A stretch of 64,000 nt of DNA from an uncultured Alphaproteobacteria bacterium (GTDB taxonomy: Bacteria; Pseudomonadota; Alphaproteobacteria; SP197): the NCBI GenBank assembly GCA_938048755.1, contig CALIUG010000107.1, forward strand, positions 3,994 through 67,993. The letters run 5' to 3'. Below are positions 2,546 to 49,446 of this stretch, one piece after another. How positions within the stretch are numbered: the stretch's first letter is position 1; the number at the start of each line of letters is the position of its first letter. Below the pieces are notes generated by a model. It was not told the origin of the DNA and made no database searches. It saw only the letters and a program-made list of their open reading frames with translations. Both the position numbers and the translations under genes were made by a program.

Positions 2546-2548
2546 GGT

Positions 2549-10044: not shown

Positions 10045-10070
10045 GATATACATGTATGTCTTGTATATCA
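10045..10070. promoter_or_regulatory. Inverted repeat GATATACA-N10-TGTATATC upstream of vapB (candidate antitoxin operator)
   Basis: 8-bp perfect arms seen directly, overlapping the region just 5' of the SD GGAGGT and the ATG at 10084. Confidence 0.4.
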
Positions 10071-10083
10071 TCGGAGGTTCATC

Positions 10084-10723: not shown

Positions 10724-10834
10724 TCGGTTCGTAGTCTTCGTGGAAGGCACTTCTCTTCACACTAATGTCTGCACAGGGGTTGAATTCGTGGTTTTCACGA
10801 TCATTTATTAAACGTCGTTTATTTAATTGCCTTA

Positions 10835-11158: not shown

Positions 11159-11385
11159 AGCACGTTCACCGGGGCGTTGCCGTATGGATGGCCATGGCGC
11201 TGGCCTATCTCCTCATGCTTGACACGCTTGAAGTTTCCTTCGCTGAATTGGGCATGCTTGGTCGCTGGACGTGGGCCGTGCTGGAAGCAGGTCTGCACAT
11301 CCTGGCCGCCTGGTTCGCCATCGGGACCCTTGGCGCCGCGGTATTCCTGGCTTCGGGCCTGTGCCACCGGCGGTCGGCATCATGA
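11155..11385 (+). CDS. Small membrane protein (76 aa, 2 predicted TM)
   Basis: ATGA-coupled to the previous ORF: MKHVHRGVAVWMAMALAYLLML...LHILAAWFAIGTLGAAVFLASGL. Confidence 0.4.
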   Translation: MKHVHRGVAVWMAMALAYLLMLDTLEVSFAELGMLGRWTWAVLEAGLHILAAWFAIGTLGAAVFLASGLCHRRSAS

Positions 11386-11669
11386 AGGGATTGTCATGCA
11401 GTGGGCATCGCACGTCGCGTCGAACGCTTCGTCCCGTCCGCTACTTCCTCTGGCTTTGGATGACCTGGTTTCTGGTGCCGCCCATCGTGGGCTTGTCGAT
11501 GGCAATCGCTGCCGTGCTTGAAGCGGCTGTCGGTGGTTCTGGCGATGTCATGTTCAGCCTTTTGACAGAACACATCCCGGCCATCATGCTGATCTGGCTT
11601 ACCGGCCTGATCGTCATTGCGCTGATCCATCACCTTGCGCGCCGTCTAGGCGCGGAGCTGCGCGCCTAG
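11382..11669 (+). CDS. Small membrane protein (95 aa, 2 predicted TM)
   Basis: ATGA-coupled to the previous ORF. FLWLWMTWFLVPPIVGLSMAIAAVLEAAV...IMLIWLTGLIVIALI shares an AVLEA motif with the preceding ORF. Confidence 0.4.
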   Translation: MKGLSCSGHRTSRRTLRPVRYFLWLWMTWFLVPPIVGLSMAIAAVLEAAVGGSGDVMFSLLTEHIPAIMLIWLTGLIVIALIHHLARRLGAELRA

Positions 11670-12400
11670 ACCAGCGTGCGCAGCGGCTTTTCGATCACCA
11701 CGGCCGTGGTGCAGCCACTCGGTGAATAGGACCCGTGGATGCTGCCGGGCGGCAGGCTCACCACGTCGCCGGTCCGGTAAGTCGTGCCGTCGGGGTCGGT
11801 GAGTTCGCCGCTCAACATGATGAACTCTTCCCAGCCTGTGTGTTCATGCCGTGACGAACTTGAACCCGGCAGAAAGTTGATCAGCGAGAGTCCTTCGCCG
11901 GTCTGGGGATTGGCGCGGATGTTGTGCCAGTCAATGGGATCGGCAGTCTCGGGCAGGCTGGGATAACGCTCGAAATCGGCCGTCTTCCAGTTCACGATTG
12001 TGCGGCCTTCCTGCATCGCCGCGATCTCGGGGTCACCTTCAACCGTATCGATGGGTTTCTGGATCCAGACCATCAGCGTGCAGCCCTTGGGCGAGCTGGT
12101 GCTGTGGCGCGTGCCGGGGTTGTAGCTCACGACATCACCTGTCTTGAGCACGGTGCCGTCGCCATCAATGAGTTCGCCGTCGAGCACGACAAACTCCTCC
12201 TGGCCGCTGTGGTGATGCAGCTTGGCGCCGCCGCCCGGGGTGATTTTGAGCAGATAGGTGCCATCGCCGGGTCCAGGTTCGGCGCGGACCGGGTGCCACA
12301 TCAGGTCGGTTTCACCGCCGTCGATGGCGGGATAGGGCTCCCAGTCACAGGTCATCCAGTTGACGACGACCCGACCATCCAGGTTCCAGACCTGATCCAT
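11666..12400 (-). CDS. Bicupin (two cupin_2 domains) protein
   Basis: Two repeated beta-barrel cupin modules (HxHxxxxE...G...H type: KLHHHSGQEEFVVLDGEL and SRHEHTGWEEFIMLSGEL). Start placed at MDQVWN to avoid overlap with the agmatinase gene; the track ORF extends to 12433. Confidence 0.6.
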   Translation of the reverse strand: MDQVWNLDGRVVVNWMTCDWEPYPAIDGGETDLMWHPVRAEPGPGDGTYLLKITPGGGAKLHHHSGQEEFVVLDGELIDGDGTVLKTGDVVSYNPGTRHSTSSPKGCTLMVWIQKPIDTVEGDPEIAAMQEGRTIVNWKTADFERYPSLPETADPIDWHNIRANPQTGEGLSLINFLPGSSSSRHEHTGWEEFIMLSGELTDPDGTTYRTGDVVSLPPGSIHGSYSPSGCTTAVVIEKPLRTLV

Positions 12401-12402
12401 GG

Positions 12403-13353
12403 CTACTTGCTCCGGTTTGTTGCCATCAAGCATGCCATCTCGAACATCATGTTGGCCACATTCACGAACGTGATGCCGATGGGGTCGTGCGGCGGGGAAA
12501 CCTCGCAGATGTCGCCGCCCACTGCGTTGATGCCCATCATGGAGCGGAAGATGACCTGCATGTCGCGCATGGAAATGCCGCCGGGCTCGGGCACGCCGGT
12601 GCCGGGGCAGTCGCGCGGGTCCAGGCCGTCGATGTCGACCGTGAGGTAACAGGGCTCGTCGCCCAGGACCTCCAGCGCCAGCTTGATGAAGGCTTCCCGG
12701 CCCATGACTTCGTATTCGTCCATCGGCACCATGGTGATGCCGACCTCGTTACCGTAACCGATGTCGTCGTCGCCATAACGTGTGCCGCGCAGGCCGACCT
12801 GGATGGTGCGTTTGGGGTCGATCAGGTTTTCTTCGACCGCACGGCGCACGAAGGTGGCGTGGTTGATCCTGGTGCCCATGAAGTCGTCGAATGTGTCGGC
12901 GTGGGCATCAACATGGAACAGACCCAGCGGACGGTCCTTGGCGATGGCGCGCAGGATGGGCAGTGGCACGGTGTGATCACCGCCGACCGAAAGCGGCCAG
13001 GCACCGGCGGCATGAATCTCTTCGTAGAAGCCCTGAATCATGTCCACGCTTTCCTCCACCTTCATCGGGTGGGTCGGTGCGTCGCCGACATCGGCAATGT
13101 TGCAAAGCCGGAACGGCGCAACCTTGGTTGCCGGATTGACCGCGCGGATCAGACGGCTGGCCTCGCGCGTGACCGCGGGGCCGTGACGTGCTCCCAGGCG
13201 ATAGGTCGCGCCGAGATCAAAGGGTACACCGGCAAGCGCGATATCGACATCGGGGCCAATTTCGTGGCGTTGCGAGCGCATGAACGTCGCGATCTCCTGA
13301 AAGCGGGGCGTGGTGCCCGAATCGTAAGGTTTGAAATCGCCGGGTCCCGACAT
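12403..13353 (-). CDS. Agmatinase/ureohydrolase (arginase family)
   Basis: Mn-binding motifs GGDHTV, DAHADT, TVDIDGLDP and SPPHD, 316 aa. Confidence 0.85.
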   Translation of the reverse strand: MSGPGDFKPYDSGTTPRFQEIATFMRSQRHEIGPDVDIALAGVPFDLGATYRLGARHGPAVTREASRLIRAVNPATKVAPFRLCNIADVGDAPTHPMKVEESVDMIQGFYEEIHAAGAWPLSVGGDHTVPLPILRAIAKDRPLGLFHVDAHADTFDDFMGTRINHATFVRRAVEENLIDPKRTIQVGLRGTRYGDDDIGYGNEVGITMVPMDEYEVMGREAFIKLALEVLGDEPCYLTVDIDGLDPRDCPGTGVPEPGGISMRDMQVIFRSMMGINAVGGDICEVSPPHDPIGITFVNVANMMFEMACLMATNRSK

Positions 13354-13460
13354 GTGGTCATGCTCCTGATGGGTTCGTGTTGCTTCGGATCGTGGTAGAC
13401 CAGCCCAACTTGCCTGACAATGGTTGCAGGAATGTCACATGTGGTGCTGTTGCTGCCATG

Positions 13461-13532
13461 GCCGGCCGGCTCTCCCACCCGGCCACCCACGAGCGTATCC
13501 TTGATGGGTGGCCGGGTGGGGGAGCGGGCTGG
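13461..13532. repeat. REP-like palindromic element, copy A (28-nt arms, 15-nt loop)
   Basis: GCCGGCCGGCTCTCCCACCCGGCCACCCA-cgagcgtatccttga-TGGGTGGCCGGGTGGGGGAGCGGGCTGG. Near-identical arms recur at 22682-22752. Confidence 0.6.
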
Positions 13533-13711
13533 TGCAGGTCTGCCAAACACAATCCCATCAACCAATGCTTGCCAACGGGCCGCGTCAGGACTATGAAGCG
13601 CGCCCAATTCCCGAGGTTTATCCGACCTGCTGCCGCTGGCGGCGATTTGGGCCTTCCCTGTAACAGGGCCCGAGCCGAAGCGGCGAGAAAGAAACGTAAG
13701 GACCACGCTAG

Positions 13712-21016: not shown

Positions 21017-21466
21017 TCAATCGGTGATCAGGAGCGTCTGAATCTCAGGTGCAAGCATTTCGCCCTGGAAGGGATTGAGCACTCTGACACCGTCATAGTC
21101 GGCACCGTGCTGCATGTCCTCGGAAAGCAGCACGGTGCAGCCGGCTTCACGCAACGTCGCGAGCAGCAGGGCGTCCCAATATTGCAGGCGGCCAGCCGCT
21201 GCTTGGGACAAAGCCCAGGATGCTGCCTGGGCGCTGGGCATGACGGCCGGAAACATTTCAAGCAGGTTGGTTGCGTGTACCGCGAGTGTTTCGGTCGCCT
21301 GCGGATCAATGCGTCGCGAGGCGACAAAGAACTCACCGACGGCCTGGATTGTCAGGTGACAGTCGACCATGCGCGAGGCGGCCAGGATTTCCAGAGTGCG
21401 TGCGTGGCGATGGCCAGCTGTTGCGTCGAATGCGTAGACCAGCACATTCGCATCAAGTGAAAACAC
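21017..21466 (-). CDS. PIN-domain toxin (VapC-like)
   Basis: MFSLDANVLVYAFD...LLSEDMQHG PIN signature, 149 aa. Confidence 0.75.
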   Translation of the reverse strand: MFSLDANVLVYAFDATAGHRHARTLEILAASRMVDCHLTIQAVGEFFVASRRIDPQATETLAVHATNLLEMFPAVMPSAQAASWALSQAAAGRLQYWDALLLATLREAGCTVLLSEDMQHGADYDGVRVLNPFQGEMLAPEIQTLLITD

Positions 21467-21480
21467 GGATTTCGTACCGG

Positions 21481-21750
21481 TCAGATGTCTTCATAGGCGT
21501 CTTCGCGCCGGAACTTGTAGCCACCCAGGTCGACAGGGTGATCACGCATGCGCTCTTGCATGCGCTGCCAGGCCGCTTCCTGCTCGGGTGTCAGAATGCG
21601 CTTTCTGCCGGGAATGGGAACGAGCTTGGCGACTGCTTCACCACGCCGCGTGATGATCACTTCCTGTCCGGATTCAACCTCGCGAATCAGACTGGCAAAT
21701 TGCTGGTTTGCGTCGCGCAAGGCGACTTCCTTGGTAGCTTCCATGATCAT
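21481..21750 (-). CDS. Phd/YefM-family antitoxin
   Basis: EATKEVALRDANQQFASLIREVESGQEVIITRRGEAVAKLVPI is the Phd/YefM N-terminus. The ATG is at 21750; the track ORF starts at a TTG at 21771. Confidence 0.7.
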   Translation of the reverse strand: MIMEATKEVALRDANQQFASLIREVESGQEVIITRRGEAVAKLVPIPGRKRILTPEQEAAWQRMQERMRDHPVDLGGYKFRREDAYEDI

Positions 21751-21756
21751 GATCCA

Positions 21757-21784
21757 AGTATGTACTACCAATGTAGTACATACT
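21757..21784. promoter_or_regulatory. Perfect inverted repeat AGTATGTACTAC-caat-GTAGTACATACT immediately upstream of the antitoxin start (candidate operator)
   Basis: 12-bp perfect arms seen directly in the sequence. Confidence 0.45.
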
Positions 21785-25635: not shown

Positions 25636-27432
25636 ATGACAGCTTCGCCTGCCTACAAGATTATCGACCATTCCTATGACGTCATCGTCGTGGGCGCGGG
25701 CGGCGCGGGTCTGCGCGCCACCCTGGGCCTTGCCGAGGCGGGATTGCATACCGCTTGCATCACCAAGGTCTTCCCCACGCGCAGCCATACCGTGGCCGCA
25801 CAGGGCGGTATTTCGGCGGCGCTGGGCAACATGGGTCACGATGACTGGCGCTTCCACATGTACGACACCATCAAGGGGTCGGACTGGCTGGGCGACCAGG
25901 ACGCTATCGAATACATGTGCAAGGAAGCACCCGCTGCGGTGATCGAGCTGGAGCATTACGGCGTGCCGTTCTCGCGCACCGAAGAGGGCAAAATCTACCA
26001 GCGCGCCTTTGGCGGGATGACGACCGATTATGGTGAAGGCACGGCCCAGCGCACCTGCGCGGCAGCCGACCGTACCGGACACGCCATCCTGCATACGCTC
26101 TACCAGCAGTCGCTCAAGAACCAGGCGCAGTTCTTCCTGGAATACTTCGCCCTTGATCTGATTATGGATGACGAAGGCGGCTGCCAGGGTGTCATGGCAT
26201 GGTGTCTGGATGACGGCACCATTCACCGCTTCAACGCCCACACCACGATCATCGCCACGGGTGGTTACGGGCGCTGCTACTTCTCCTGCACCTCGGCCCA
26301 TACCTGCACCGGTGACGGCGGCGGTATGGCGTTGCGTGCGGGCCTGCCGCTCCAGGACATGGAGTTTGTGCAGTTCCATCCCACGGGTATCTATGGCGCC
26401 GGCGTGCTGATTACCGAAGGCGTGCGCGGTGAGGGCGGTTATCTCGTCAACTCCGAAGGCGAGCGATTCATGGAGCGATACGCGCCCTCAGCCAAGGATC
26501 TTGCCAGCCGAGATGTCGTCTCGCGCGCCATGACCATGGAAATCCGCGACGGTCGGGGTGTGGGCGGCGACAAGGACCATATCTTCCTGAAACTCGATCA
26601 CCTTGATCCCGCGATAATCCATCAGCGTCTGCCCGGCATTTCCGAAAGCGCGCAGATCTTCTCAGGTGTCGATGTGACCAAGGAGCCGATCCCGGTCCTG
26701 CCCACCGTGCATTACAACATGGGTGGTGTTCCCACGAACTATCATGGTGAGGTCGTCACCCTCAGGGATGGCGAGCCCAATGCTGTCGTGCCCGGCCTGA
26801 TGGCAGCAGGCGAGGCCGCCTGCGTTTCGGTCCATGGCGCGAACCGCCTGGGCTCCAACTCCCTGCTCGATCTCGTGGTGTTCGGACGTGCTGCCGCGAT
26901 CCGTGCAGCCGAAGTGGTCAAGCCTGGTGCCCGGCTGCGCGAGCTGCCCAAGGATGCTGGTGAAGCAACGCTCGATCGTCTCGACCGTCTGCGCCATGCC
27001 AAGGGTGATACACCGACGGCCGCCATCCGCGCGAAGATGCAAAGCACCATGCAGAACGATGCCGCGGTCTTCCGCACCCAGGAAACGCTGGCGGAAGGCT
27101 GCACCAAGATGGCCGATGTTTTCGACAGTTTCTCCGATGTCGGCGTCTCGGACCGTTCGATGATCTGGAATACCGATCTGGTGGAGACCTGGGAGCTCGA
27201 CAACCTGCTGCGCCAGGCCGTCGTCACGATCAACTGCGCGGAAAACCGCAAGGAAAGCCGTGGTGCTCACGCGCGCGAGGACTTCGCGGACCGGGATGAC
27301 GAAAACTGGATGAAACACACGGTTTGCTGGCTCAGCGAAGACGGCAAACCCAGCATCGACTATCGGCCGGTGCATATGGAAACGCTGACCGATGATGTCG
27401 AAACCGTCCCGCCCAAGGCGCGGGTTTATTGA
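25636..27432 (+). CDS. sdhA: Succinate dehydrogenase flavoprotein subunit
   Basis: [18 protein letters not shown] fold, [10 protein letters not shown] (covalent FAD His) and [11 protein letters not shown]. Confidence 0.95.
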
Positions 27433-27446
27433 TCGGAGGAAGTGTC

Positions 27447-27704
27447 ATGCGACGTCTGTTGATTGTTCTGGTGGCTGGCCTGGCGCTGTTGGCGTCCGGC
27501 GATGCCGCCCATGCCAGTACGCAGTGGAAGGAAAGCCACTACAACCTCGTCCAGGCTCTGGAGGCCGGCTACACCGTCGTCAGCAACTATCACAACAGCG
27601 AGGGCCATCTGGTCTTCGTCCTGCAGCGTCAGAATGTCTTGCTGATGTGTGCCTATGCCGTGCAACAATCGACCAATTGCGCACAGTTGGGCAATGAGCT
27701 CTAG
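27447..27704 (+). CDS. Small secreted hypothetical protein (85 aa) inserted between sdhA and sdhB
   Basis: Strong SD GGAGGA 8 nt before the ATG. MRRLLIVLVAGLALLASGDAAHAS is a signal peptide. The mature ~60 aa has 2 Cys. Confidence 0.5.
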   Translation: MRRLLIVLVAGLALLASGDAAHASTQWKESHYNLVQALEAGYTVVSNYHNSEGHLVFVLQRQNVLLMCAYAVQQSTNCAQLGNEL

Positions 27705-31843: not shown

Positions 31844-32679
31844 AATCTGGGATGGGCGACCAGAATGACCAGTTCGACCTGGTGGTCGACCAGGGCCTGG
31901 CGGTAGTTACTGAACTTCTCACGTGCGTTGGCACCGGTCAGCAAGTGCAGGCCCAGAGGAGGGGGGGCGTCTGATTGGTCCGCCTTTGCAAACATCTTCT
32001 CGAAGAATTCCAGGGCGAAGTCGCGCAGGTTCTCTTCTTCGGAAACGATGAAACCGGCGTCATCCAGCAGCGTGATGCTCTCATCGCGGGTCTTCAGGGT
32101 GCTGGTATCGGCGGTCTCGGCCCAGGGCACGGGATAACGCATCCCGGACGTCGGCCCCTTCATGACATCGAACAGGCATAGCGGCGCATCGGGACGCAGA
32201 ACGCGGGCAGCCTCGCGCAGCAACAGATCGCGATCGGCGATGTTCATGGCGACATGGAAGCTATAGGCGGCGTCGAAGCTGTCGTCCTCGAAGGGCAGAG
32301 ACAGAGCGCTGCCGGTCTCGAACCTACATTGATCGGCCAATCCCATGCGTTGGGTCAGAAGGTCCGCGACCTCGATATAGGCCGGTGTCAGGTCGATCCC
32401 GGTCACGCGGCAGCCGCGTTCTGTGGCCAGACAGCGCGCGGCACCGCCAATGCCGCACCCGATGTCGAGAACATGACTGTCCTTGTCTGCTTCGAACAGG
32501 TCCAGCGCGATCAGGGTCGCGGCACGCCCGCCGGTGTGAAATTCGTCCACGGCGGCCAGGTCTTCTGGCTGAATCCGGTCAAGGTCGATGCCCTGTTGTT
32601 CCAGTCCGGCGAGAATGTCTTCGGCCAGACCCGACCGCTGGTAATGGGCCGCGACGGATTGTTCGAGTTCGTCTGTCAT
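31840..32679 (-). CDS. Class I SAM-dependent methyltransferase
   Basis: Motif I VLDIGCGIGG and post-I GIDLTP. Start at the ATG at 32679, which overlaps the stop of the upstream cyclase (TGATG). The track ORF extends to 33069 in frame. Confidence 0.7.
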   Translation of the reverse strand: MTDELEQSVAAHYQRSGLAEDILAGLEQQGIDLDRIQPEDLAAVDEFHTGGRAATLIALDLFEADKDSHVLDIGCGIGGAARCLATERGCRVTGIDLTPAYIEVADLLTQRMGLADQCRFETGSALSLPFEDDSFDAAYSFHVAMNIADRDLLLREAARVLRPDAPLCLFDVMKGPTSGMRYPVPWAETADTSTLKTRDESITLLDDAGFIVSEEENLRDFALEFFEKMFAKADQSDAPPPLGLHLLTGANAREKFSNYRQALVDHQVELVILVAHPRF

Positions 32680-33926
32680 CAAGCCAGCCTTTGATTGCAG
32701 TTGGGGGGAGCAAAGACCTCGATGGGCGCGGTTACGCCCTTCAGGGCCTGGCTGCCCAGCGAGAGCCATGGCTCTTCTAGAAGTCCGGCAAAGGCGGCGC
32801 TGGCCAGCACGGGTCTCTGCAGAACCTTTGTCAGGGCCTCGATGCGTGCAACCTGATTTGCCGCCGGTCCGATGGCCGTGAACTGCAGCCGTTGGGGAAC
32901 GCCGATATTGCCATAGGTCAGATCCCCGACATGGAGCGCAATACCGCAGCTGATGGCGTCGTCCCCTCGCTCCCTGCGTGGGATGTTCAGGGCTTCCAGC
33001 GCCTGCATGGCTTCCATGGTTGCCTTGCGTGCCGCCTCGGCTGCGGCCTGTGCGCCCATGGTCAGACACGGGAAGATGGCAAGCACGGCATCACCAATCA
33101 GCAGCAGTACTTCACCACCGTTGGCGATGACCGGTCCGGCCGTTGCCTCAAACATCTCGTTCAGCACATTCAGATAGGCTTCAGGCTCCAGCTTTTCGGC
33201 CAGGCGCGTCGAATTGCGCATGTCGGAATATAAGATGACGGCGTGCAGGGTTTCGGTGTCGCCGCGCTGAATGTTGCCGCCCAGAACCTTGGCCCCGGCA
33301 TTGCTGCCGACATAGGCACTCAGCAGGTTGCGCGAGATCTCGCCCTTGATGCGTACCTTGCAGGCAACCGCCAGCCGGGTTTTCACACGCCGCAAGGCGC
33401 GGATGTCTGCCTCGCTGAAACCGCTCTCCCGGTCGGTTGCCCAGGAAAGGAACATACCGTCGCCGATCTCCTGATCAGGCGAGACCTTCCCGAAGGGAAC
33501 ATGGGCAGCCAGATAGTCGGTGACTCCAGCGTCATGCAACTCGGTCAGCACTGGAAAATCGACCAGAGCATCGTCCCCCACAAGCTTGCGGCGGACGAAA
33601 GGAATGTCGTTTTCGACCATGTGAAAAAATGGGCTGTCTCGGAACATCGCGTTGCCCGTGGCGCCATGGGGCATCTCGAAGGTGTCCACGCCCTTTCCCT
33701 GTTCCCAGACCAACCAGATCGCCTCGAACAGCGGATGCAGCGTGCGGTAACTCACCAGCGCGCGCGTGATCGGCACACCGGCGGCGCGCAGGCGACGGCA
33801 GCAGCCATCGACCAGCTCGACCATGCCGGTATTGGCCAGCGCCTGTTCCATCAGCCAGTCGGCGACGACATCGATCAGCGCGCCGTCAAGGCTGGGATTG
33901 CGCAGGGGTTCGGACATCACAGTCAT
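32679..33926 (-). CDS. Class III adenylate/guanylate cyclase with N-terminal sensor-like domain
   Basis: CHD catalytic domain AVILYSDMRNSTRL...GDAVLAIF...IALHVGDLTYGNIG. Start ambiguous between 33926 and 33992. Confidence 0.75.
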   Translation of the reverse strand: MTVMSEPLRNPSLDGALIDVVADWLMEQALANTGMVELVDGCCRRLRAAGVPITRALVSYRTLHPLFEAIWLVWEQGKGVDTFEMPHGATGNAMFRDSPFFHMVENDIPFVRRKLVGDDALVDFPVLTELHDAGVTDYLAAHVPFGKVSPDQEIGDGMFLSWATDRESGFSEADIRALRRVKTRLAVACKVRIKGEISRNLLSAYVGSNAGAKVLGGNIQRGDTETLHAVILYSDMRNSTRLAEKLEPEAYLNVLNEMFEATAGPVIANGGEVLLLIGDAVLAIFPCLTMGAQAAAEAARKATMEAMQALEALNIPRRERGDDAISCGIALHVGDLTYGNIGVPQRLQFTAIGPAANQVARIEALTKVLQRPVLASAAFAGLLEEPWLSLGSQALKGVTAPIEVFAPPNCNQRLA

Positions 33927-34159
33927 CGGCCCAATATGGGGCGCAGGGCACGCTACGCCAATGTGTAGTTTTGTCTGTCTGCCCGGAGACACGCAGTCGT
34001 TCAGGGGATTCAGATACGTGTGAATGTCCCGAGTCTCTCCGGAGTCCGGTTTTTTGCCAGAATCCCCTTGCGATTCACCATGCAGGCTGGTTGTTTAGCG
34101 GCCCATTCCACACCTGACAGATGACCGGCGGCCCCATGTGCTGCTGGGAGGATTTTACG

Positions 34160-36656
<2,497 letters not shown>

Positions 36657-36738: not shown

Positions 36739-37212
36739 ATGACGATAGGTAATGGAATGCGCATGTTTGCAGCAGCGCTGCTTGTGATGGTGGTCTCGCT
36801 GCCGGGCGTACGGGCCGAGGAGTCTCACGGGACGGCGGAGGAAGCCCAGATCATGGTGGGCCAGGCTGTGGCCTATTTCGATGAGGTCGGCGCCCGGAAG
36901 GCCTTCACGAAGTTCAGCGATGATCCCGCTCCGATGTTCCTCAAGGGCGATCTCTATGTTTTTGTCATAGACGGGAACGGCACCATCGTCGCGCATGGTG
37001 TCGATCCTTCGCTCATCGGTCGTGATGCCACGCAGCTCGAAGATGTCGATGGCAAGAAGTTCGGCCAGGAAATGCTGAGCGAAGCCAGCATGGATGGCAC
37101 CTGGGTCGACTACAAATGGAAAGACCCGCTGACCGATGCCATCGAACCCAAGTCAAGCTGGGTGGTCCTGCATGATGGGTATGTCTTTGGCGTGGGCATC
37201 TACAAGCCATAG
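36739..37212 (+). CDS. Standalone periplasmic single-Cache (sCache_2-like) domain protein, paralog 1
   Basis: Signal peptide MRMFAAALLVMVVSLPGVRA. The body EAQIMVGQAVAYFDEVG...DLYVFVIDGNGTIVAHGVDPSLIGRD...DGKKFGQEM...DGTWVDYKWKDP...PKSSWVVLHDGYVFGVGIY matches the sCache_2 pattern (DLYxFVxDxxGxxxAHP...GKxxxxEM...GGWVxYxWxxP...KxSYV...GVY). It has no TM or output domain. Confidence 0.6.
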   Translation: MTIGNGMRMFAAALLVMVVSLPGVRAEESHGTAEEAQIMVGQAVAYFDEVGARKAFTKFSDDPAPMFLKGDLYVFVIDGNGTIVAHGVDPSLIGRDATQLEDVDGKKFGQEMLSEASMDGTWVDYKWKDPLTDAIEPKSSWVVLHDGYVFGVGIYKP

Positions 37213-37219
37213 ACCCGGT

Positions 37220-37684
37220 ATGTTGCGCCAGGTCCTGATCGCGCTTTGTCTTATCGCGGTGCCGTTCGGCGCTCTTGCCGATGAGCATCGCGGCTCGCCG
37301 CGTGAAGCACAGGCCATGGTCGAACGCGCGGTCGCGCTCTATGACGCTGAAGGGATGCAGGCGTTCCGCGAGTTCTCCAAGTCCGCATCCTCGGATTTCC
37401 AGGACAGAGACCTCTATCTCTTTATCATCGATCAGGCCGGCTTCATGGCCGCCCACGCGTTGTTTCCCGATGCTGTTGGTCAAAGTGCGATCAATGCCCG
37501 GGACCCAGAGGGCAAGTACTACGTGCGTGAAATGCTGGAGCGGGCAACCGAATCGGGCGTCTGGATCGATTACGTGTTCAACGATCCCCTGCTGGGCTTC
37601 CCCGTTCCGAAATCAGCCTGGGTCGTGCGCCACGACGGGTTTCTTTTCGCCTGCGGTATCTATGCCGGTGAACTTGGCGTTTGA
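37220..37684 (+). CDS. Standalone periplasmic sCache_2-like domain protein, paralog 2
   Basis: Same architecture: signal peptide MLRQVLIALCLIAVPFGALA, then DLYLFIIDQAGFMAAHALFPDAVGQ...EGKYYVREML...GVWIDYVFNDPL...PKSAWVVRHDGFLFACGIY. Confidence 0.6.
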   Translation: MLRQVLIALCLIAVPFGALADEHRGSPREAQAMVERAVALYDAEGMQAFREFSKSASSDFQDRDLYLFIIDQAGFMAAHALFPDAVGQSAINARDPEGKYYVREMLERATESGVWIDYVFNDPLLGFPVPKSAWVVRHDGFLFACGIYAGELGV

Positions 37685-37723
37685 TGGCGGTTGCGACAAC
37701 TCGGAAGAAGGGGTGCTGACCTG

Positions 37724-38182
37724 ATGAAACAACTCCTGATTGCCTTGTTCACTCTGGTAGTGATGGGCGCGTCCACAGTCTGGGCTGATGACAGCCGCGG
37801 CACGACGGGCGAAGCCCAGAAGCTGGTGGCTGATGCTATTGCATTCTTCGATGACGTCGGCGCGGAAGCGGCCTTTGCCGAAATGAACTCGGGCGAGTCC
37901 CGGTTCGAAGACCGTGATCTCTATATCTTCGTGGTTGCCCAGGACGGCACTGTCGTTGCCCAGGTCGCCGACCCCGGTCGGGTCGGTATGGATGCGCGCA
38001 CCCTGCGCGATGCTGCCGACACCGCCTACGGCACTATGATCGTCGATCACGCCACGCCGGACGGCGTCTGGGTCGAATACCTGCGCGAAGATCCCCTGAC
38101 TGGTGAAGTCGCGCCCAAGGCAAGCTGGGTTGTCCTCCATGACGGTTACATCTTCGGCTGCGGTGTCTATCTGACCCAGTGA
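37724..38182 (+). CDS. Standalone periplasmic sCache_2-like domain protein, paralog 3
   Basis: Signal peptide MKQLLIALFTLVVMGASTVWA, then DLYIFVVAQDGTVVAQVADPGRVGMD...DGVWVEYLREDPLTGEVAPKASWVVLHDGYIFGCGVY. Confidence 0.6.
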   Translation: MKQLLIALFTLVVMGASTVWADDSRGTTGEAQKLVADAIAFFDDVGAEAAFAEMNSGESRFEDRDLYIFVVAQDGTVVAQVADPGRVGMDARTLRDAADTAYGTMIVDHATPDGVWVEYLREDPLTGEVAPKASWVVLHDGYIFGCGVYLTQ

Positions 38183-38307: not shown

Positions 38308-39477
38308 ATGAATCTGCACGAATATCAGGCCAAACAGGTCCTCGCGTCCCACGGTGTTTCTGTGCCGCGTGGCGAAGTGGCCGGCAATGGCGACGAGGCG
38401 GTCGCCGGCGCCGAAAAACTCGGGGGCGATCTCTGGGTCGTCAAGGCGCAGGTCCACGCAGGTGCGCGGGGCAAGGCAGGCGGCATCAAGGTCTGCAAGA
38501 CCCATGATGAGGTGCGCCAGGCGGCCGATGGCATGATCGGGGAACTTCTGATCAACCACCAGACCGGGCCCGCCGGAAAGCCGATCCACAAGGTTTATGT
38601 CGAGGAAGGTTCCGACATCGCGCGCGAGCTTTATCTCGCCTTGCTGGTCGACCGCGACAGCAGCCGTATCGCCGTGATCGCTTCGACCGAAGGCGGCATG
38701 GATATCGAAGAGGTCGCAGCCAGCACGCCCGACAAGATTGTCTCGCTCAGCATCGATCCCGCCAGCGGCCTGATGCCGTTTCACGGCCGCCGTCTTGCCG
38801 CCGCGCTCGAGCTGGAGGGCGATCAGGTCAAGCAGGCAGGCAAGCTGCTGGGCGCGATGTACGCCACCTTTCTGTCGAGCGATGCCAGCATGCTCGAGAT
38901 CAATCCGCTGGTCGTGACCAAGGCGGGCGATCTGGTCGTGCTCGACTGCAAGTTCAACATCGATGACAACGCCATGTTCCGTCACAAGGACCTGGCCGAG
39001 ATGCGCGACGAGAGCCAGGAAGACCCGGCGGAGCTTGAAGCCCATGAAGTCGGGCTCAACTACATCAAGCTCGATGGCACCATCGGCTGCATGGTGAACG
39101 GTGCAGGTCTTGCCATGGCGACCATGGATATCTGCAAACTGGCCGGCGGCGAGCCTGCCAACTTCCTGGATGTCGGTGGTGGTGCGACCAAGGAGCAGGT
39201 TGCCTCGGCCTTCCGCATTATTGTGTCGGACCCGAACGTGAAAGCCATTCTGGTCAACATCTTCGGCGGCATCATGCGCTGTGACGTCATTGCAGAAGGC
39301 ATCGTTGCCGCGGCCAAGGAACTGGATCTTCAGGTTCCCGTTGTCGTGCGCCTGGAAGGCACCAATGTCGATCAGGGCAAGAAGATCCTGGCCGATTCCG
39401 GACTGGCGCTGACGCCTGCCGATGATCTCAGTGACGCTGCGGCCAAGGCCGTGGCTGCCATCAAGGGAGAAGCCTGA
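38308..39477 (+). CDS. sucC: Succinyl-CoA ligase [ADP-forming] beta subunit
   Basis: [12 protein letters not shown] and the ATP-grasp fold; 389 aa. Confidence 0.95.
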
Positions 39478-40352
39478 TGGCCGTTCTCGTCAATCGCGAT
39501 ACCAAGGTCCTGGTGCAGGGTTTCACCGGCAAGACCGGCACCTTCCATTCCGAACAGGCCATGGCCTATGGCACCCAGGTTGTCGGCGGTGTCACGCCCG
39601 GCCGTGGCGGCAGCAGCCATCTCGACCGGCCCGTTTTCGACACGGTCGAGCAGTGTGTCACCCATACCGGTGCGAACGCTTCGGTCATCTATGTGCCGCC
39701 GCCCTTTGCCGGTGACGCCATTCTCGAAGCCGTCGATGCCGGCGTCGAACTGATCGTTGCCATCACCGAAGGCATTCCGGTGCTCGACATGGTGCGGGTC
39801 AAACGTGCGCTGCAGGGTTCGGGCTCGCGCCTGATCGGGCCCAACTGTCCCGGTGTCATCACGCCGGACGAATGCAAGATCGGCATCATGCCGGGCCACA
39901 TCCACAAACGCGGCAAGATCGGTGTGGTCTCGCGCTCAGGCACGCTGACCTATGAAGCCGTCCACCAGACAACCGGTGTCGGTCTGGGTCAGACCACCTG
40001 TATCGGCATCGGTGGTGACCCCGTCAACGGCACCAACTTCATCGATTGCCTGGAAATGTTCCTTGGCGACGACGAGACCGAAGGCATCATCATGATTGGC
40101 GAGATCGGTGGATCGGCCGAGGAAGACGCGGCCGAATTCATCCGGCAGGACAAACGCAAGAAGCCCATCGCCGGGTTCATTGCCGGTGTCACCGCCCCGC
40201 CGGGCCGTCGCATGGGTCATGCCGGTGCCATCATTTCAGGCGGCAAGGGCAAGGCCGAAGACAAGATCGAAGCCATGCAGAGTGCGGGCTTCACCATTGC
40301 TGATTCTCCCGCAAGCCTGGGCACAGCCATGCTGGCGGCGATGAAGGGTTAG
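39477..40352 (+). CDS. sucD: Succinyl-CoA ligase alpha subunit
   Basis: Phospho-His loop SRSGTLTYE and GxxGHAGA. Stop/start overlap with sucC (TGATG). Confidence 0.95.
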
Positions 40353-40396: not shown

Positions 40397-43333
40397 ATGG
40401 GACAGCGGATCGACGAACTCTCCTTTCTCAACGGTACCAACGCCAACTACATCGCAGAGCTCTACGCGCGTTATCGTGCCGATTCTGACGATGTCAGCAA
40501 GGAATGGCGCGAGGTTTTCGACGACCTGAACGACGATGCCGCCTCCATCCTGGCCGAACTGGAACCGGCCCGCGCCGCCCGTATCGTTCAGGACTTCGAG
40601 GACGAACCCGAAGGGTTCGGCTTCCCGCCCCGCAATGGCAACGGCCATGGCCGTCCCCAGCACGGTTATGATGGTAACGGCGCAACCCACAGCGCGCCTG
40701 ATTGGGCACCGGTTCCGGGCCATCGTGATTCCGTCGCCGAGTATGCCGTGGCGCGCGACAGCATCCGGATTCTGATGATGATCCGCGCCTATCGTGTGCG
40801 TGGCCATCTCGCGGCCAATCTCGATCCCCTGGGCATCGAAGGCAGCCGTCATCATCCCGAACTTGATCCCAAAAGCTACGGCTTCACCGACGCCGATTAC
40901 GGCCGGGAATTTTTCGTGGATGGCGTCCTGGGTTTCCAGCGCGCCACGCTGCAGCAGATTCTCGATGCGGTGCGCAAGACCTATTGCGGCACCATCGGTG
41001 TCGAGTTCATGCATATCCAGAGCCCGGACGAGAAATCCTGGATCCAGCGCAAGTTCGAAGGCACACGCTCTGATGCCGAACTGGGACCGGAAGAAAAGAA
41101 ACGCGTGCTCTCGGAGATCTTCCGTTCGGAAGGCTTCGAGAAGTTCCTTTCCATCAAGTATCCAGGCTCCAAGCGGTTCTCGCTGGAAGGTGGTGAAAGC
41201 ACCATCGCGGCGATGGAAACCATCATCCGCACCGCAGCCCGTGGCGGCGTCGAGGAGATCGTTCTGGGCATGCCCCATCGCGGTCGCCTCAACATTCTGA
41301 CCAACGTCATGGGCAAGTCCTACGCCCAGGTCTTTTCCGAGTTCCAGGGCGAGTCCAGCCATCCCGATGCCGTCCATGGCTCCGGCGACGTGAAGTACCA
41401 TTTGGGCACCTCTTCGGATCGCCAGGTGGCCGATGGCCGCAAGATTCACCTTTCGCTCACGGCCAACCCTTCGCATCTCGAAGCCGTCAATCCCGTGGTC
41501 GAAGGCAAGGTCCGCGCCAAGCAGGAAATGCTTGGGGATGAGGAGCGCAAGAAGGTTCTGGCCATCCTGCTCCACGGCGATGCGGCCTTTGCCGGTCAGG
41601 GTCTGGTTGCCGAGACGCTGGGCATGTCGGAACTGCGCGGTCACAAGACCGGCGGCACGATCCACATCATCGTCAACAACCAGATCGGGTTCACGACCAA
41701 TCCCAGTTTCTCGCGTTCGTCGCCCTATCCCAGCGACGTCGCAAAGATGGTGTCCGCGCCGATCTTCCATGTGAACGGCGATGACCCCGAAGCGGTGGTG
41801 CATGTCGCCAAGGTCGCGGCAAAGTTCCGCCAGGAATTCGGACGCGATGTGGTGATCGACATCTTCTGCTACCGCCGCCACGGCCATAACGAAGGCGACG
41901 AGCCGGCCTTCACCCAGCCCATCATGTACCGCAACATTGCCAAGCACCCCACGACCCGCCAACTCTATACCGAGCGGCTGGTTTCTGAAGGTGTGATCAC
42001 GCCCAAGCAGGCCGACCGCATGATCCAGGACTTCAATGGTCAGTTGGAGAAGGACCTGGAGGCCTCACAGGGTTACAAGCCCAACAAGGTCGACTGGCTT
42101 GAAGGCGTCTGGTCGGGCCTCGAGGTTTCCGAGCGGGATGGTGCGCGTCGCGGCATGACGGCGGTTCCGACCGAGGAACTCAAGACCGTGGGCCACGCCA
42201 TCGCCAGTTATCCCGATAGCGTGAATGTCCATCGCAAACTCAAGCGCATTCTCGACCAGCGCCGCACCATGATCGACGAAGGCAAGGGCATCGACTGGGC
42301 GATGGCGGAAGCGCTGGCTTTCGGCACCCTGTGCTACGAGCGGGCCAATGTGCGTCTCTCCGGCCAGGATTGCGGGCGCGGCACGTTCAGCCAGCGCCAT
42401 TCCGTGCTGGTCGATCAGATCACCGAAGAACGCTATATTCCGCTCAACCACATCAGCGACGATCAGGGCCGTTACGAGGTCATCGACAGCATGCTCTCGG
42501 AAGCCGGCATCCTGGGTTTCGAGTATGGCTACAGCCTTGCCGACCCCAACACGCTGGTTCTGTGGGAAGCCCAGTTCGGCGACTTCGCCAATGGCGCCCA
42601 GGTCATCGTCGATCAGTTCCTCACCGCAGGTGAGAGCAAGTGGTTCCGCATGTCGGGCCTCGTCATGCTGCTGCCGCATGGCTATGAGGGGCAGGGGCCT
42701 GAACACAGTTCGGGACGGCCGGAGCGTTATCTTCAGCTTGCGGCGGAAGACAACCTCCAGATTGCCAACTGCTCGACTCCGTCGTCCTACTTCCATTTGC
42801 TGCGGCGTCAGATGAAACGCAAGTTCCGCAAGCCGCTCATTGTCATGACGCCCAAATCCCTGTTGCGGCACAAGCGCTGTGTTTCCAGAACCGAAGACTT
42901 CACTGGCGAGACACAGTTTCACCGCACGCTCTGGGAACTGGACGACGCCAGCCACGGTAAGGACATGGAGCGTGTCGTGCTCTGTACGGGCAAGGTCTAT
43001 TATGACCTGCTCGAGAAACGTGACGAACTGGGCCTCAAAAACGTCACCTTCATCCGCCTGGAACAGCTTGCGCCATTCCCGCTCGATGCCCTGCAGGAAG
43101 CCGTCGACTATTATCCCAATGCCCAGTTCATCTGGTGCCAGGAAGAACCTCGCAACATGGGTGCCTGGAACTTCGTGCGCGACAAGATCGAACAGGCCAT
43201 GGAAAAGGGCGAACTCAAGATGGTGTTGCCGCGTTATGTCGGGCGCGATGAAGCGGCATCTCCGGCAACAGGCTTTATCCGTGTGCATGAACGCGAGCAG
43301 GAAGCGCTCGTCAACGAAGCCCTGACAGGCTGA
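40397..43333 (+). CDS. sucA: 2-oxoglutarate dehydrogenase E1 component
   Basis: 978 aa with ThDP-binding regions (GDAAFAGQG...) characteristic of SucA. Confidence 0.95.
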
Positions 43334-43365: not shown

Positions 43366-44646
43366 ATGGCGATCGAAATCAAGGTGCCCCAGCTTGGCGA
43401 GTCCGTCACGGAGGCCACGGTTGCGACCTGGTTCAAGAACAAGGGTGACGCCGTCACGCGTGATGAACCCCTGGTCGAGCTTGAAACCGACAAGGTGACC
43501 ATGGAGGTCTATGCCCCGGCATCGGGCGTGCTCTCCGACGTCATGTTCGACGAAGGCAGCGATGTCGAGGTCGGCACAGTGCTGGGCAAGGTCGAGGAGG
43601 GCGATGCGCCTGCTGCCAGCGCCGAACCGGCACCAGAAGAAGCACCGGCCAAGAAGGAAGAGCCCGCAGCCGCACCCAGCAAAGAGGAACCGGCAACTGC
43701 ATCCGCCGCCGAGGCGAAGAGTGATCTGCCGCTGTCACCTGCCGTGCGCAAGATGGTGGACGAGAACAATCTGGACCCCTCCGCCATCAGCGGAACCGGC
43801 AAGGATGGTCGTCTGACCAAGGCCGACGTTCAGGCCCATCTGGATGGCGGGGGCAGGAAGGACGCTGCCAAACCTGCCGCGCCTGCGCCCGAAGCACCGG
43901 CCCCGCGTGAACGGGTTGCCGTCGCGCCGTCCGAGCCTGATCCGGAGGGACGCGAGGAACGCGTCAAGATGACGCGTCTGCGCAAACGTATTGCCGAGCG
44001 TCTCAAGGCAGCACAGGACACCGCGGCTATGCTCACGACCTTCAACGAGGTCGACATGACCGCCGTGATGGCCGCGCGCAAGCAGTATCAGGAGCGTTTC
44101 GAGAAGAAACACGGCGTACGCCTGGGCTTCATGTCGTTTTTCGTGCGCGCCGCAATACAGGCACTGCAGGACATCCCGGCCGTCAACGGCGAGATCGCCG
44201 GCGACGAGATCATCTACAAGCACTACTACCATATCGGTGTGGCGGTCAGCTCGCCCTCGGGTCTGGTGGTGCCGGTACTGCGTGATGCAGACAAGCTGTC
44301 CTTTGCCGAAATCGAAAAGAACATCGGCGCCCTGGGCGTCAAGGCACGGGACGGCAAGCTCTCGCCCAACGACCTGACCGGTGGCACCTTCACGATTTCC
44401 AACGGCGGCATCTTTGGTTCACTCATGTCCACGCCCATTCTGAATCCGCCACAATCGGGCATTCTGGGCATGCACAAGATTCAGGAACGCCCGATCGCCG
44501 TCGATGGTGAAGTGGTGATCCGACCCATGATGTATCTGGCACTGAGCTACGATCACCGCATCATCGATGGCCGTGAAGCCGTGACCTTCCTGGTCCGTCT
44601 GAAGGACGCCATCGAGGATCCCCAGCGCTTGCTGCTGGAGATCTGA
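43366..44646 (+). CDS. sucB: Dihydrolipoyllysine-residue succinyltransferase (E2o)
   Basis: Lipoyl domain ETDKVTMEV, an Ala/Pro linker, a PSBD, and the catalytic [10 protein letters not shown]. Confidence 0.95.
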
Positions 44647-44784: not shown

Positions 44785-46179
44785 ATGGCCGATCAGGATT
44801 TTGACGTTGTCGTCATCGGGGCGGGACCCGGTGGTTATGTCTGTGCCATCCGCTGTGCGCAGCTTGGCCTGAAGACGGCCTGTGTCGAAAAGCGCGAAAC
44901 CCTGGGTGGGACCTGCCTCAATATCGGCTGCATCCCCTCCAAGGCTCTGCTGCAATCCTCCGAACTCTACGAGCAGGCCAACGGCCATCTGGGCAAGCAT
45001 GGCGTAAAGGTATCGGGCGTCGAGCTTGACCTGCCGACCATGATGAAACGCAAGGACAAGGTGGTCGATACACTGACCAAGGGCATTGCCGGTCTCTTCA
45101 AGAAGAACAAGATCACGCATCTGATCGGTGAGGGTCGCATCATCGATGCCAACACCGTTGAGGTCGCAGGCAAGAAGGTCTCAACCAGGAATATCGTGAT
45201 TGCGACCGGTTCGGAGGTTGCCAGCCTGCCGGGTATCGAGATCGATGAGGAACGGGTTGTTTCGTCCACCGTCGCGCTAGCCCTTCCCGAGGTTCCCAAG
45301 CGCATGCTGGTGATCGGTGCGGGTTTCATCGGCCTTGAGATGGGCTCGGTCTGGAAACGCCTGGGTGCTGAGGTCACGGTCGTGGAGTATCTCGATCGCA
45401 TCGCGCCGGGCATGGACGGGGAGATCGCAAAGGAGTTTCAGAAACTTCTCAAGCGTCAGGGACTGGGCTTCAAGCTTGGCACCAAGGTGACCGGGGTGAA
45501 ATCCTTGAAGAAGGAACTGAAGGTCACGCTGGAGCCGGCAGCCGGAGGCGATGCTGAAACCATTGCCTGCGATGTCGTGCTGGTCTCGGTCGGTCGTCGC
45601 CCCTATGTCGATGCCCTGGGTCTGGAAGATGCTGGCGTTGCGCTTGACGACCGTGGCCGGGTTGCCATCGACGACCACTTCGCCACCAACGTTTCGGGCA
45701 TCTATGCCATCGGCGATTGCGTGCGTGGCCCCATGCTGGCGCACAAGGCCGAGGATGAAGGCATGGCCATGGCTGAAATCCTGGCCGGTCAGTCCGGCCA
45801 CATGAACTACGGCGTCATTCCCGGCGTGGTCTATACCGATCCCGAAGCAGCCTCGGTCGGCAAGACCGAAGACGAGCTCAAGGACGAAGGCGTCGATTAT
45901 GTTTCCGGCAGTTTCCCCATGCTCGCCAACAGCCGTGCGCGGACCTATGACCAGACCGGCGGTCTGGTGAAGATCCTGGCTGATGCAAAGACGGATCGTG
46001 TTCTGGGTGTGCACATCCTGGGCAGTGGTGCCGGTGAGCTGATCGCCGAAGCTGCCGTGGCCATGGAGTTCGGCGCGTCGTCGGAAGACATTGCGCGGAC
46101 CTGCCATGCCCATCCGACCTTCTCCGAAGCGGTGAAGGAAGCCGCCCTTGCGGTCTCGAAACGCGCCATCCACTTCTGA
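44785..46179 (+). CDS. lpdA: Dihydrolipoyl dehydrogenase (E3)
   Basis: Redox-active disulfide GGTCLNIGCIPSK, FAD/NAD folds and C-terminal HAHPTFSE. Confidence 0.95.
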   Translation: MADQDFDVVVIGAGPGGYVCAIRCAQLGLKTACVEKRETLGGTCLNIGCIPSKALLQSSELYEQANGHLGKHGVKVSGVELDLPTMMKRKDKVVDTLTKGIAGLFKKNKITHLIGEGRIIDANTVEVAGKKVSTRNIVIATGSEVASLPGIEIDEERVVSSTVALALPEVPKRMLVIGAGFIGLEMGSVWKRLGAEVTVVEYLDRIAPGMDGEIAKEFQKLLKRQGLGFKLGTKVTGVKSLKKELKVTLEPAAGGDAETIACDVVLVSVGRRPYVDALGLEDAGVALDDRGRVAIDDHFATNVSGIYAIGDCVRGPMLAHKAEDEGMAMAEILAGQSGHMNYGVIPGVVYTDPEAASVGKTEDELKDEGVDYVSGSFPMLANSRARTYDQTGGLVKILADAKTDRVLGVHILGSGAGELIAEAAVAMEFGASSEDIARTCHAHPTFSEAVKEAALAVSKRAIHF

Positions 46180-48201: not shown

Positions 48202-49446
48202 GTGTTGAAAGAACTGGCCCGGTCGATCGAGGCGCGTCCCGTTGTCCTGCTGGTTCTGCTCTGCCTGATCCAGGTCGGAACCATGATGGGGTTCTCGACC
48301 TACTGGTCGCTTCTCCCGATTCTGCAACCCGCCTGGGACATGACCAACGAGCAGGCCGGATGGCTCTCGGGTATGTTGTTCGGCGGTTATGTGATGGCCG
48401 TTCCGTTCCTGGTGACGATCACGGACCAGCGCGATGCGCGCGGCATCATGCTCATCGGGTTTATCCTGGCGTTCCTGGGGCTGGCAGGCATGGCGCTGGC
48501 CGGTGACGGCTTCTGGCCTGCGCTGATCTGGCGCACGCTGGCCGGTGCCGGTCTGGCCGGGACTTACATGCCCGGTCTCAAGGTGCTGACGGATCGGCTC
48601 GACAGTTCCCGTCACGCGCGCGCGGTTGCGTTCTACACCGCTTCCTTCAGCGTCGGGGCCGGGGTGTCCTACTTCGTTTCGGGATTTCTGTTCCAGTATC
48701 TTTCCTGGCAGGGCGTTTTCGCCGTCATTGCGCTGGGTCCCGTGGTTTCTGCCGTTCTGGTGATCCTTCTGGTTCTGCCGCGCCAACCCGAACGCTCTGA
48801 AGGCAAGCAGCGCCACGCCCTCGATTTCCGGCTTGTGCTCAAGTCACCCCAGACCATCGCTTATGTCCTGGCCTATGCCGGACATACGGCCGAACTGTTC
48901 GCCATGCGCTCCTGGCTCGTGCCTTTTGTGGTTTCCAGCTTCGCCCTTCATGGCGTCGCCAACGAGGTCGATGCGGCCGTCGTTGCCACGACGGTGTCGT
49001 TTGTCGCCGTGTTTTCCAGTCTGGCCGGTGCGGAACTTGCCATCCGCATCGGGCGGGTCCGCCTCATCGCCGCGGCCATGGTGGTCTCGTTTCTGGTCGC
49101 CGTGGCCACCGGTTTTGCCGTCGCCCTGCCGATCTGGATCGTGGTCGCGCTCTGCCTGATCTACTCCCTGACGATCCAGGCGGATTCCGCGGCCATCACG
49201 GCCGGTGCCGTCGCCATGGCGCCCAAGGGACACCGTGGCGCAACGCTCGCCGTGCATTCGGTGATCGGGTTCAGCGGTGCGCTCATCGGCCCACCCATCG
49301 TGGGTGTCATGCTCGATATCACCGGCGGTCAGGGCTCCGTGCTTGCCTGGGGCCTCTCCTTCGTTCTGATGGGAGCCTTTGGCCTCTTTGGCCTTGCCTG
49401 CCTTCTGTGGCTGGGTCGTCAGGCGCGGGGGTGTGCGTTGCGGTAG
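48202..49446 (+). CDS. MFS transporter
   Basis: 12 predicted TM, with an MFS loop motif (DQRDARGIML ~ D-R/K-x-G-R-R). Confidence 0.8.
   Translation: MLKELARSIEARPVVLLVLLCLIQVGTMMGFSTYWSLLPILQPAWDMTNEQAGWLSGMLFGGYVMAVPFLVTITDQRDARGIMLIGFILAFLGLAGMALAGDGFWPALIWRTLAGAGLAGTYMPGLKVLTDRLDSSRHARAVAFYTASFSVGAGVSYFVSGFLFQYLSWQGVFAVIALGPVVSAVLVILLVLPRQPERSEGKQRHALDFRLVLKSPQTIAYVLAYAGHTAELFAMRSWLVPFVVSSFALHGVANEVDAAVVATTVSFVAVFSSLAGAELAIRIGRVRLIAAAMVVSFLVAVATGFAVALPIWIVVALCLIYSLTIQADSAAITAGAVAMAPKGHRGATLAVHSVIGFSGALIGPPIVGVMLDITGGQGSVLAWGLSFVLMGAFGLFGLACLLWLGRQARGCALR

Follow-up and report, generated by a model that had tools for sequence, protein, structure and literature searches.

Three stand-alone sCache_2 proteins, predicted to be secreted and encoded between mdh and sucC of an uncultured alphaproteobacterium, are candidate periplasmic ligand-capture proteins

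Among the extracellular sensor modules of prokaryotes, Cache domains have been called the largest family (PMC4822843), and they are treated as the input side of signalling proteins. More than 90% of them are fused to signalling modules, stand-alone copies being highly unusual (2026 preprint PMC12889525). How a domain of the sCache_2 family holds a carboxylate is described for the receptor PscD, in which propionate is hydrogen-bonded by Y90, H103, Y143 and K156 and packed by W92, W145 and F126 (PMC5062169). We found no description in the open-access literature of heme-free sCache_2 proteins lacking an output domain, or of proteins carrying arrays of Cache domains (poly-Cache arrays). Here, we analyse a stretch of 64,000 nucleotides (the window; contig CALIUG010000107.1, positions 3,994 to 67,993) from an uncultured Alphaproteobacteria bacterium, in which three genes, cacheA, cacheB and cacheC, are located between mdh and sucC in the gene cluster for enzymes of the tricarboxylic acid (TCA) cycle. 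Their products, termed A, B and C in the following, each carry an sCache_2 domain and no signalling part.

The three open reading frames (ORFs), taken from their most probable start codons, are consecutive and all on the plus strand: cacheA (36739-37212, 157 amino acids), cacheB (37220-37684, 154 amino acids) and cacheC (37724-38182, 152 amino acids). The ORF map recovers them exactly where an earlier note on this DNA, made from the sequence alone, had placed three paralogs, and the mutual identity of 35-45% estimated there by eye is borne out by BLASTP, which gives 41-44%. The individual pairwise values are 42% (A versus B), 44% and 41%, with E = 6e-39, 1e-42 (A versus C) and 8e-39, i.e. far beyond chance. 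The family motif quoted in the earlier note holds as a consensus and fails as a strict pattern, from which B and C both deviate: in C, alanine replaces D in DLYxFxxD, and in B, FP stands for DP, I stands for V in GxWVxY, and L, F and A replace T, Y and G in the C-terminal motif. The intergenic gaps amount to 82 nt (mdh-A), 7 nt (A-B), 39 nt (B-C) and 125 nt (C-sucC). A Shine-Dalgarno sequence, GGGAGGG, precedes cacheA, and a Shine-Dalgarno-like AAGGGG precedes cacheC. The GC content of the three genes matches that of their surroundings, and no further Cache copy was found in the 64-kb window.

All three proteins score above the gathering threshold of 25 bits for Pfam sCache_2 (PF17200), with 61.9 bits for A, 40.2 bits for B and 25.2 bits for C; C barely passes the threshold, yet it is a clear homolog of A by BLASTP. 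In NCBIfam, the kinase MctS and the malate chemoreceptor CtpM match best, through their Cache regions, and score far under the equivalog cut-offs, which is to be expected when a match is confined to the domain. The fold was predicted for A, for which an AlphaFold2 model built on a 103-sequence alignment (pLDDT 88.1, pTM 0.79) consists of two N-terminal helices (33-50 and 52-61), a short helix (108-115) and five strands. Its top 11 Foldseek matches in the PDB are all sCache_2 chemoreceptor domains, including 4EXO/2QHK, TlpB, 4K08 and 5G4Y with E-values from 7e-9 to 3e-7, and a sequence-profile search of the PDB ranks highest 4K08, solved with bound acetate (3.5e-13), and 5G4Y, the carboxylate receptor PscD (3.4e-12). 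Domain search and structure prediction, both proposed in the earlier note as checks of its sCache_2 assignment, thus agree with it, the former for A, B and C and the latter for A.

At the N-terminus of A, B and C, a charged or basic residue is followed by a hydrophobic stretch and a site of the AxA type, with predicted cleavage between VRA and EE in A (signal peptide 1-26, leaving a mature protein of ~131 amino acids), between ALA and DE in B and between VWA and DD in C. Windows of 19 residues with a Kyte-Doolittle hydropathy above 1.6 occur in all three proteins at the N-terminus only. These features suggest that the proteins are exported and cleaved. The Pfam scan found no transmitter domain, and there is no second hydrophobic segment, so that A, B and C are not transmembrane receptors of the Cache type. 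The architecture described in the earlier note, a signal-peptide-like start followed by one Cache domain and no later transmembrane or output segment, is hence what Pfam gives for A to C and AlphaFold2 and Foldseek give for A. Membership in a known solute-binding protein (SBP) family is excluded, with no SBP match for any of the three in Pfam or NCBIfam and a PAS-like fold, and a functional analogy to these proteins is possible. A PepSY or lipoprotein identity, which the note had named as grounds for abandoning its view, is ruled out as well, with no PepSY match in Pfam or Foldseek and no lipobox cysteine at the predicted cleavage sites of A, B or C. The same holds for an output domain hidden by a frameshift, because sucC starts 125 nt after the stop codon of cacheC and the gene boundaries are identical in the near-identical contigs L001-L004 and L087-L089. 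Taken together, A, B and C are predicted to be soluble periplasmic proteins, each made up of a bare sCache_2 ligand-binding domain.

A profile alignment places the PscD ligand-contacting residues Y90, W92, H103, F126, Y143, W145 and K156 at Y73, F75, H86, G109, Y125, W127 and K138 of A. The corresponding residues of B are Y, F, H86, V109, Y, F127 and K. The set contacting the carboxylate is therefore complete in A and B; C has Q86 but retains the other three residues. Across 64 single- or double-domain members from 49 sources, Y73 and F75 are found in 64/64, Y125 and K138 in 63/64 and H86 in 49/64, the rest having mostly Asn or Gln at this position; D71 of A is invariant. Three positions distinguish the paralogs: residues 86, 109 and 127 are H, G and W in the A type, H or N, V and F or S in the B type, and Q, G and R in the C type, which also has the most divergent pocket in the window (Q86, R127). 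Each signature is common to the respective orthologs in other species, that of C being shared with its ortholog in genome L005. From this conservation we infer that A, B and C bind a small metabolite bearing a carboxylate and that residues 86, 109 and 127 endow them with differing specificities. TCA-related organic acids, the ligands hinted at in the earlier note, are plausible, fitting both the conserved carboxylate contacts and the position in the operon. One might speculate that R127 of C suits a second acidic group. The paper on PA2652/CtpM holds no residue-level data for testing specificity toward C4-dicarboxylates.

The phylogenetic distribution was assessed by a scan for a strict family motif in one genome for each of 185,579 species, which returned 122 matches. 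This number fits the description of freestanding copies as uncommon in the earlier note, as does the proportion of signalling-fused Cache domains given above (PMC12889525). The 80 loci listed of these 122 all come from metagenome-assembled genomes (MAGs). Among the loci listed, the arrangement mdh-Cache(1-5)-sucCDAB is present in 17 alphaproteobacterial MAG species, whose mdh products are 69-98% identical to that of the window. In a neighbour-joining tree, a B-type copy is found at the mdh-sucC site in 17/17 species and C-type copies group beside B, whereas A-type copies cluster with those from unrelated alpha- and gammaproteobacterial loci; the tree is unbootstrapped, and it is mainly the identity values that place A with copies from other sites, A being 56-58% identical to the copies of L007 and L008 and 42% identical to B. 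Between 1 and 5 copies are present at the site, and double-domain fusions also occur there (L043, L010). On these data, A, B and C are three old lineages, B being the resident one. The tandem triplication proposed in the earlier note is an oversimplification, and a recent local triplication is rejected by the tree and the identity values.

Compared with the orthologs in L005, the ratio of nonsynonymous to synonymous substitution rates (dN/dS) is 0.17 for A, 0.18 for B and 0.08 for C, versus 0.02-0.04 for the flanking genes, and dN of the Cache genes is ~7-10x that of mdh and the suc genes. A, B and C are accordingly under purifying selection, fast-evolving yet constrained, and are real genes. 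In L006, the C-type copy is reduced to a fragment.

In the wider family, the closest 120 homologs are almost all 117-186 amino acids long, with a single double-domain exception of 273 amino acids. An exhaustive profile search of 1.84 billion representatives returned 906 representatives (50% identity) at E <= 1e-30, and the family is not tiny. Among the top 150 representatives, proteins with 2-16 Cache domains in tandem predominate. In an Acidimicrobiales MAG (L053), for example, one ORF of 2032 amino acids (7581-13679) comprises 15 domains, and a Dehalococcoidia MAG (L056) encodes two such arrays, of 8 and 10 domains (2329-5964 and 7254-12263); the ORF of L053 and the second ORF of L056 begin with a lipobox-like signal followed by a Pro/Thr-rich linker. 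As to taxonomy, the tandem arrays (P0121-P0270, L053, L056) belong to Acidimicrobiales, Dehalococcoidia, Poribacteria and other MAGs. We scanned 16 representatives of extra length for additional domains. An output domain of the methyl-accepting chemotaxis protein (MCP), kinase or GGDEF type was found in 0/16. Other recognised extracytoplasmic domains were present in 10/16: SBP_bac_3 in four proteins, Peripla_BP_6/ANF_receptor in two, one of which also has SBP_bac_5, and an autotransporter beta domain following 7 Cache domains in one. Two further proteins carry a 5'-nucleotidase C-terminal domain and one carries Laminin_G/Ig (LamG/Ig) domains. The remaining 6/16 match Cache families only, or no family.

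Among the loci listed, 14 from Chloroflexota encode a permease of the NCS2 superfamily (539-593 amino acids) within 350 bp of a poly-Cache gene, at 714-2450 in L056, at 5515-7251 in L057 and at 12 more loci in L061-L081, the two genes being divergent in some loci and convergent in others. Including extra copies that are not adjacent to a Cache gene, the permease cluster has pairwise identities of 29-98% with a median of 39%; this diversity points to a functional link rather than to recent synteny. The gene, assigned to NCS2/xanthine-uracil permeases, encodes ~140 extra C-terminal residues and scores far below the NCBIfam cut-offs. Elsewhere, the neighbours often act on carboxylates or CoA thioesters: AMP-binding ligases flank the A-like copy of L007 on both sides, a Nitrospinota-type block comprises genes for a family III CoA-transferase, an acyl-CoA-dehydrogenase-like protein (assigned by eye) and a 3-hydroxyisobutyrate-dehydrogenase-like protein, and further neighbours are HpcH aldolase and FAA hydrolase genes as well as a GCS2 ligase gene followed by ABC-transporter genes. 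Clustering of the neighbours of 80 loci revealed no single partner conserved across phyla and clade-specific blocks only.

Regarding habitat, the 80 genome matches (L005-L084) include no isolate, all being MAGs, and many of them belong to taxa or bear bin labels typical of marine sponge microbiomes (Poribacteria, Binatia, Nitrospinota, Dehalococcoidia and Arenicellales; COS4, RHO1 and SB0662). The close relative L010 has a different bin label, SI072, which is taken as pelagic. In sponge-associated Thaumarchaeota, Cache Pfams are reported to be enriched (PMC7848895). In JGI/IMG, the proteins of the window and their cluster mates are named 'hypothetical protein', 'signal transduction histidine kinase' or 'cytochrome c'; the latter two names are wrong, the inspected proteins having neither a kinase domain nor a heme motif.

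The operon around the Cache genes is arranged on the plus strand throughout. Upstream lies mdh, encoding malate dehydrogenase (35691-36656; the identical protein of L001 has Ldh_1_N and Ldh_1_C), preceded directly by an aldehyde dehydrogenase gene (34160-35659; Pfam Aldedh, E = 1e-143). The adjacency of these two genes is kept in L001, L002, L005, L006, L009, L010 and L032 and is absent from the single-copy B-type loci. Downstream follow sucC (38308-39477) and sucD (39477-40352) for the succinyl-CoA synthetase subunits, identified by ATP-grasp_2/Ligase_CoA and CoA_binding matches on the identical L001 proteins in Pfam, and then the 2-oxoglutarate dehydrogenase genes that complete the cluster, sucA (40397-43333), sucB (43366-44646) and lpd (44785-46179), whose L001 counterparts of equal length carry E1_dh, 2-oxoacid_dh and Pyr_redox_2. 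The spacing of the genes and their conserved order suggest co-transcription of cacheA, cacheB and cacheC with mdh-sucCDAB-lpd. A consensus scan revealed no excess of promoter- or terminator-like sites over shuffled sequence, which says little on the transcription unit; in the 82-nt gap between mdh and cacheA it revealed no terminator-like site, and mdh is probably in one transcription unit with the three genes. No RNA family reaches the Rfam gathering score in the window.

Other genes of the window were inspected as well, and the checked neighbours are housekeeping or unrelated genes. On the minus strand, 32679-33992 encodes a protein of 437 amino acids in which ~240 uncharacterised N-terminal residues precede a class III nucleotidyl-cyclase domain (Pfam Guanylate_cyc, 32 bits) and which, by eye, has no membrane segment; L001 and L002 have the gene in the same place, two genes upstream of mdh. 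An ORF of 91 amino acids at 27429-27704 (plus strand) begins with a signal-peptide-like segment, has no Pfam match and lies between two large ORFs whose counterparts in L002 are sdhA and sdhB; in L002 it is called as a gene of 85 amino acids. This ORF would encode another small secreted protein placed within a TCA operon. Among housekeeping genes there are also a PIN-domain toxin gene and, next to it, a Phd/YefM antitoxin gene (21017-21771, minus strand), as well as another PIN-domain gene that stands alone (10259-10723, plus strand).

We propose, with a probability of roughly 0.5, that A, B and C capture small carboxylates in the periplasm, that they are produced along with the TCA operon and that they act in the manner of SBPs. 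According to this model, co-transcription would lead to production of the three proteins whenever the TCA cycle is expressed; the pocket set of Tyr, His, Tyr and Lys (Y73, H86, Y125 and K138 in A) would hold the carboxylate of the ligand; and the proteins would retain organic acids in the periplasm and hand them over to an uptake system or, with lower probability, a sensor, whose genes lie elsewhere. A, B and C themselves would transduce no signal. We favour a role in capture because the family has multiplied its domains up to 16 per protein, has been fused to solute-binding domains and an autotransporter, and is adjacent to permeases in Chloroflexota. The suggestion of the earlier note that the domains might be solute-binding partners of a transporter gains support from the fusions to SBP domains and from the permease adjacency, and we consider it plausible.

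Several points weigh against this model. Neither a transporter nor a receptor partner is encoded near cacheA, cacheB and cacheC, no NCS2-like permease is present in the 64-kb window, and the nearest transporter is an MFS gene at 48202-49446 with no demonstrated link. The permease-linked relatives from Chloroflexota are just 33-36% identical to A. Family members away from mdh have varied neighbours, so the TCA link may hold for this clade alone, and the mdh site may be merely a permissive, well-expressed insertion site. Co-transcription is deduced only from the gene spacing and weak consensus scans. The pocket was mapped by sequence alignment and not on model coordinates, C has Q86 in place of the pocket histidine, and the single-copy B clade has N86. 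In addition, TlpB, also an sCache_2 protein, binds urea (PMC5062169). The sCache_2 fold thus does not dictate a carboxylate ligand. Read by eye, the alignment appears to place the key urea-binding residue of TlpB, which we take to be Asp114, at the position of H86 of A, in which case this position could switch the ligand class, bearing on N86 of the B type and Q86 of the C type. A search of the open-access literature found no stand-alone Cache protein that delivers a solute to a transporter, and we know of none.

Among the explanations competing with capture for uptake, we regard it as unlikely that A, B and C act as co-receptors, which would bind their ligand and dock on a distant membrane kinase, chemoreceptor or cyclase to regulate organic-acid uptake or TCA genes, as do LuxP with LuxQ and TorT with TorS. 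The nearest characterised relatives are indeed all sensory domains (4K08, 5G4Y and TlpB in structure, MctS and CtpM in sequence), and a conserved pocket in three differing versions would suit the input of several signals. However, no sensor lacking a periplasmic domain was found near cacheA, cacheB and cacheC, the only signalling gene close by being that of the Guanylate_cyc protein; the arrays of up to 16 domains and the fusions to an autotransporter and to SBPs are hard to square with one-to-one docking; and an output module was absent from all of the fusion proteins inspected. Slightly less probable still is a role as a periplasmic buffer that retains leaked or scarce organic acids and requires no dedicated partner. 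Such a role would account for the location of the genes in a presumably well-expressed housekeeping operon and for the failure to find a partner, and the 1-5 copies at the site together with the heavy multiplication of the domain in relatives suggest that dosage matters. Pockets that are specific to each paralog across species point instead to specific recognition, and the permease adjacency in Chloroflexota points to coupling with transport; moreover, proteins binding in the micromolar range, the affinity range measured for PscD, would buffer weakly.

That the three proteins are decaying remnants of a receptor or neutral passengers of the operon appears very improbable. The elevated dN, the C-type fragment in L006 and the fluctuating copy number would be in line with decay, but dN/dS values of 0.08-0.18, intact reading frames and signal peptides, a site kept in 17 species and a nearly invariant pocket are not. 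We assign next to no likelihood to a redox or heme function like that of stand-alone sCache_heme (Tll0287-like) proteins. Many homologs do bear the name 'cytochrome c' in JGI, and stand-alone heme-binding Cache proteins do exist (PMC12889525), yet A, B and C contain no CxxCH motif, A lacking any cysteine, their best matches are carboxylate-binding chemoreceptor domains, and the 13 PDB matches up to E = 10 include neither a chain named as a cytochrome nor any other heme-Cache structure. The missing heme-attachment motif effectively refutes a cytochrome identity.

A broader proposal, which we make only tentatively and consider doubtful, is that sCache_2 proteins without output domains form an unrecognised class of extracytoplasmic solute-binding proteins, single in Proteobacteria and arranged as arrays elsewhere, that feed secondary transporters, such as the NCS2-type permease encoded next to them, the trio of the window being an organic-acid capture set placed in a TCA operon. 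In Chloroflexota, Actinomycetota and other groups, arrays of up to 16 domains would be carried by autotransporters or by proteins resembling lipoproteins, and the class would occur mostly in marine lineages without cultured members, possibly associated with sponges. If this were true, a large branch of the Cache family would have dropped its signalling part, the fold would also serve ligand capture at the cell surface, and a new kind of binding protein could be added to nutrient uptake in uncultured marine bacteria. The alphaproteobacterial clade would then link the recognition of organic acids in the periplasm to the expression of the TCA operon.

The proteins of the window share features with several known systems. 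With the chemoreceptors for C2/C3 carboxylates PscD of Pseudomonas syringae (5G4Y/5G4Z), Adeh_3718 (4K08), the MCP of Vibrio parahaemolyticus (4EXO/2QHK) and McpP they have in common the family, the fold (modelled for A) and, by prediction, the extracytoplasmic location, and the Tyr, His, Tyr and Lys that contact the carboxylate in PscD are kept in A and B. In the chemoreceptors, the sCache_2 domain is located between two transmembrane helices and drives an MCP domain, whereas in A, B and C a predicted signal peptide replaces the first transmembrane helix and the proteins end at the last beta strand, being more compact than the chemoreceptor domains. Relative to PscD, Trp92 is replaced by Phe and Phe126 by Gly or Val, changes which may enlarge the pocket. 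TlpB of Helicobacter pylori (3UB6) is of the same fold and family as A and differs in its ligand, which is urea and not a carboxylate. The stand-alone sCache_heme proteins (Tll0287-like) are likewise single-domain and output-less, and they are secreted, as A, B and C are predicted to be, but they possess an inserted helix, a CXXCH motif with covalently bound heme c and a proposed redox role, the motif being absent from the window proteins (PMC12889525). The SBPs of ABC, TRAP and TTT transporters resemble the proposed role, as they are secreted or lipid-anchored binders, often multicopy or in tandem; they have a two-lobed Venus-flytrap fold, in contrast to the PAS-like Cache fold of the window proteins, which also lack an adjacent cognate transporter. 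A, B and C lie outside the receptor architectures that define all characterised sCache_2 proteins.

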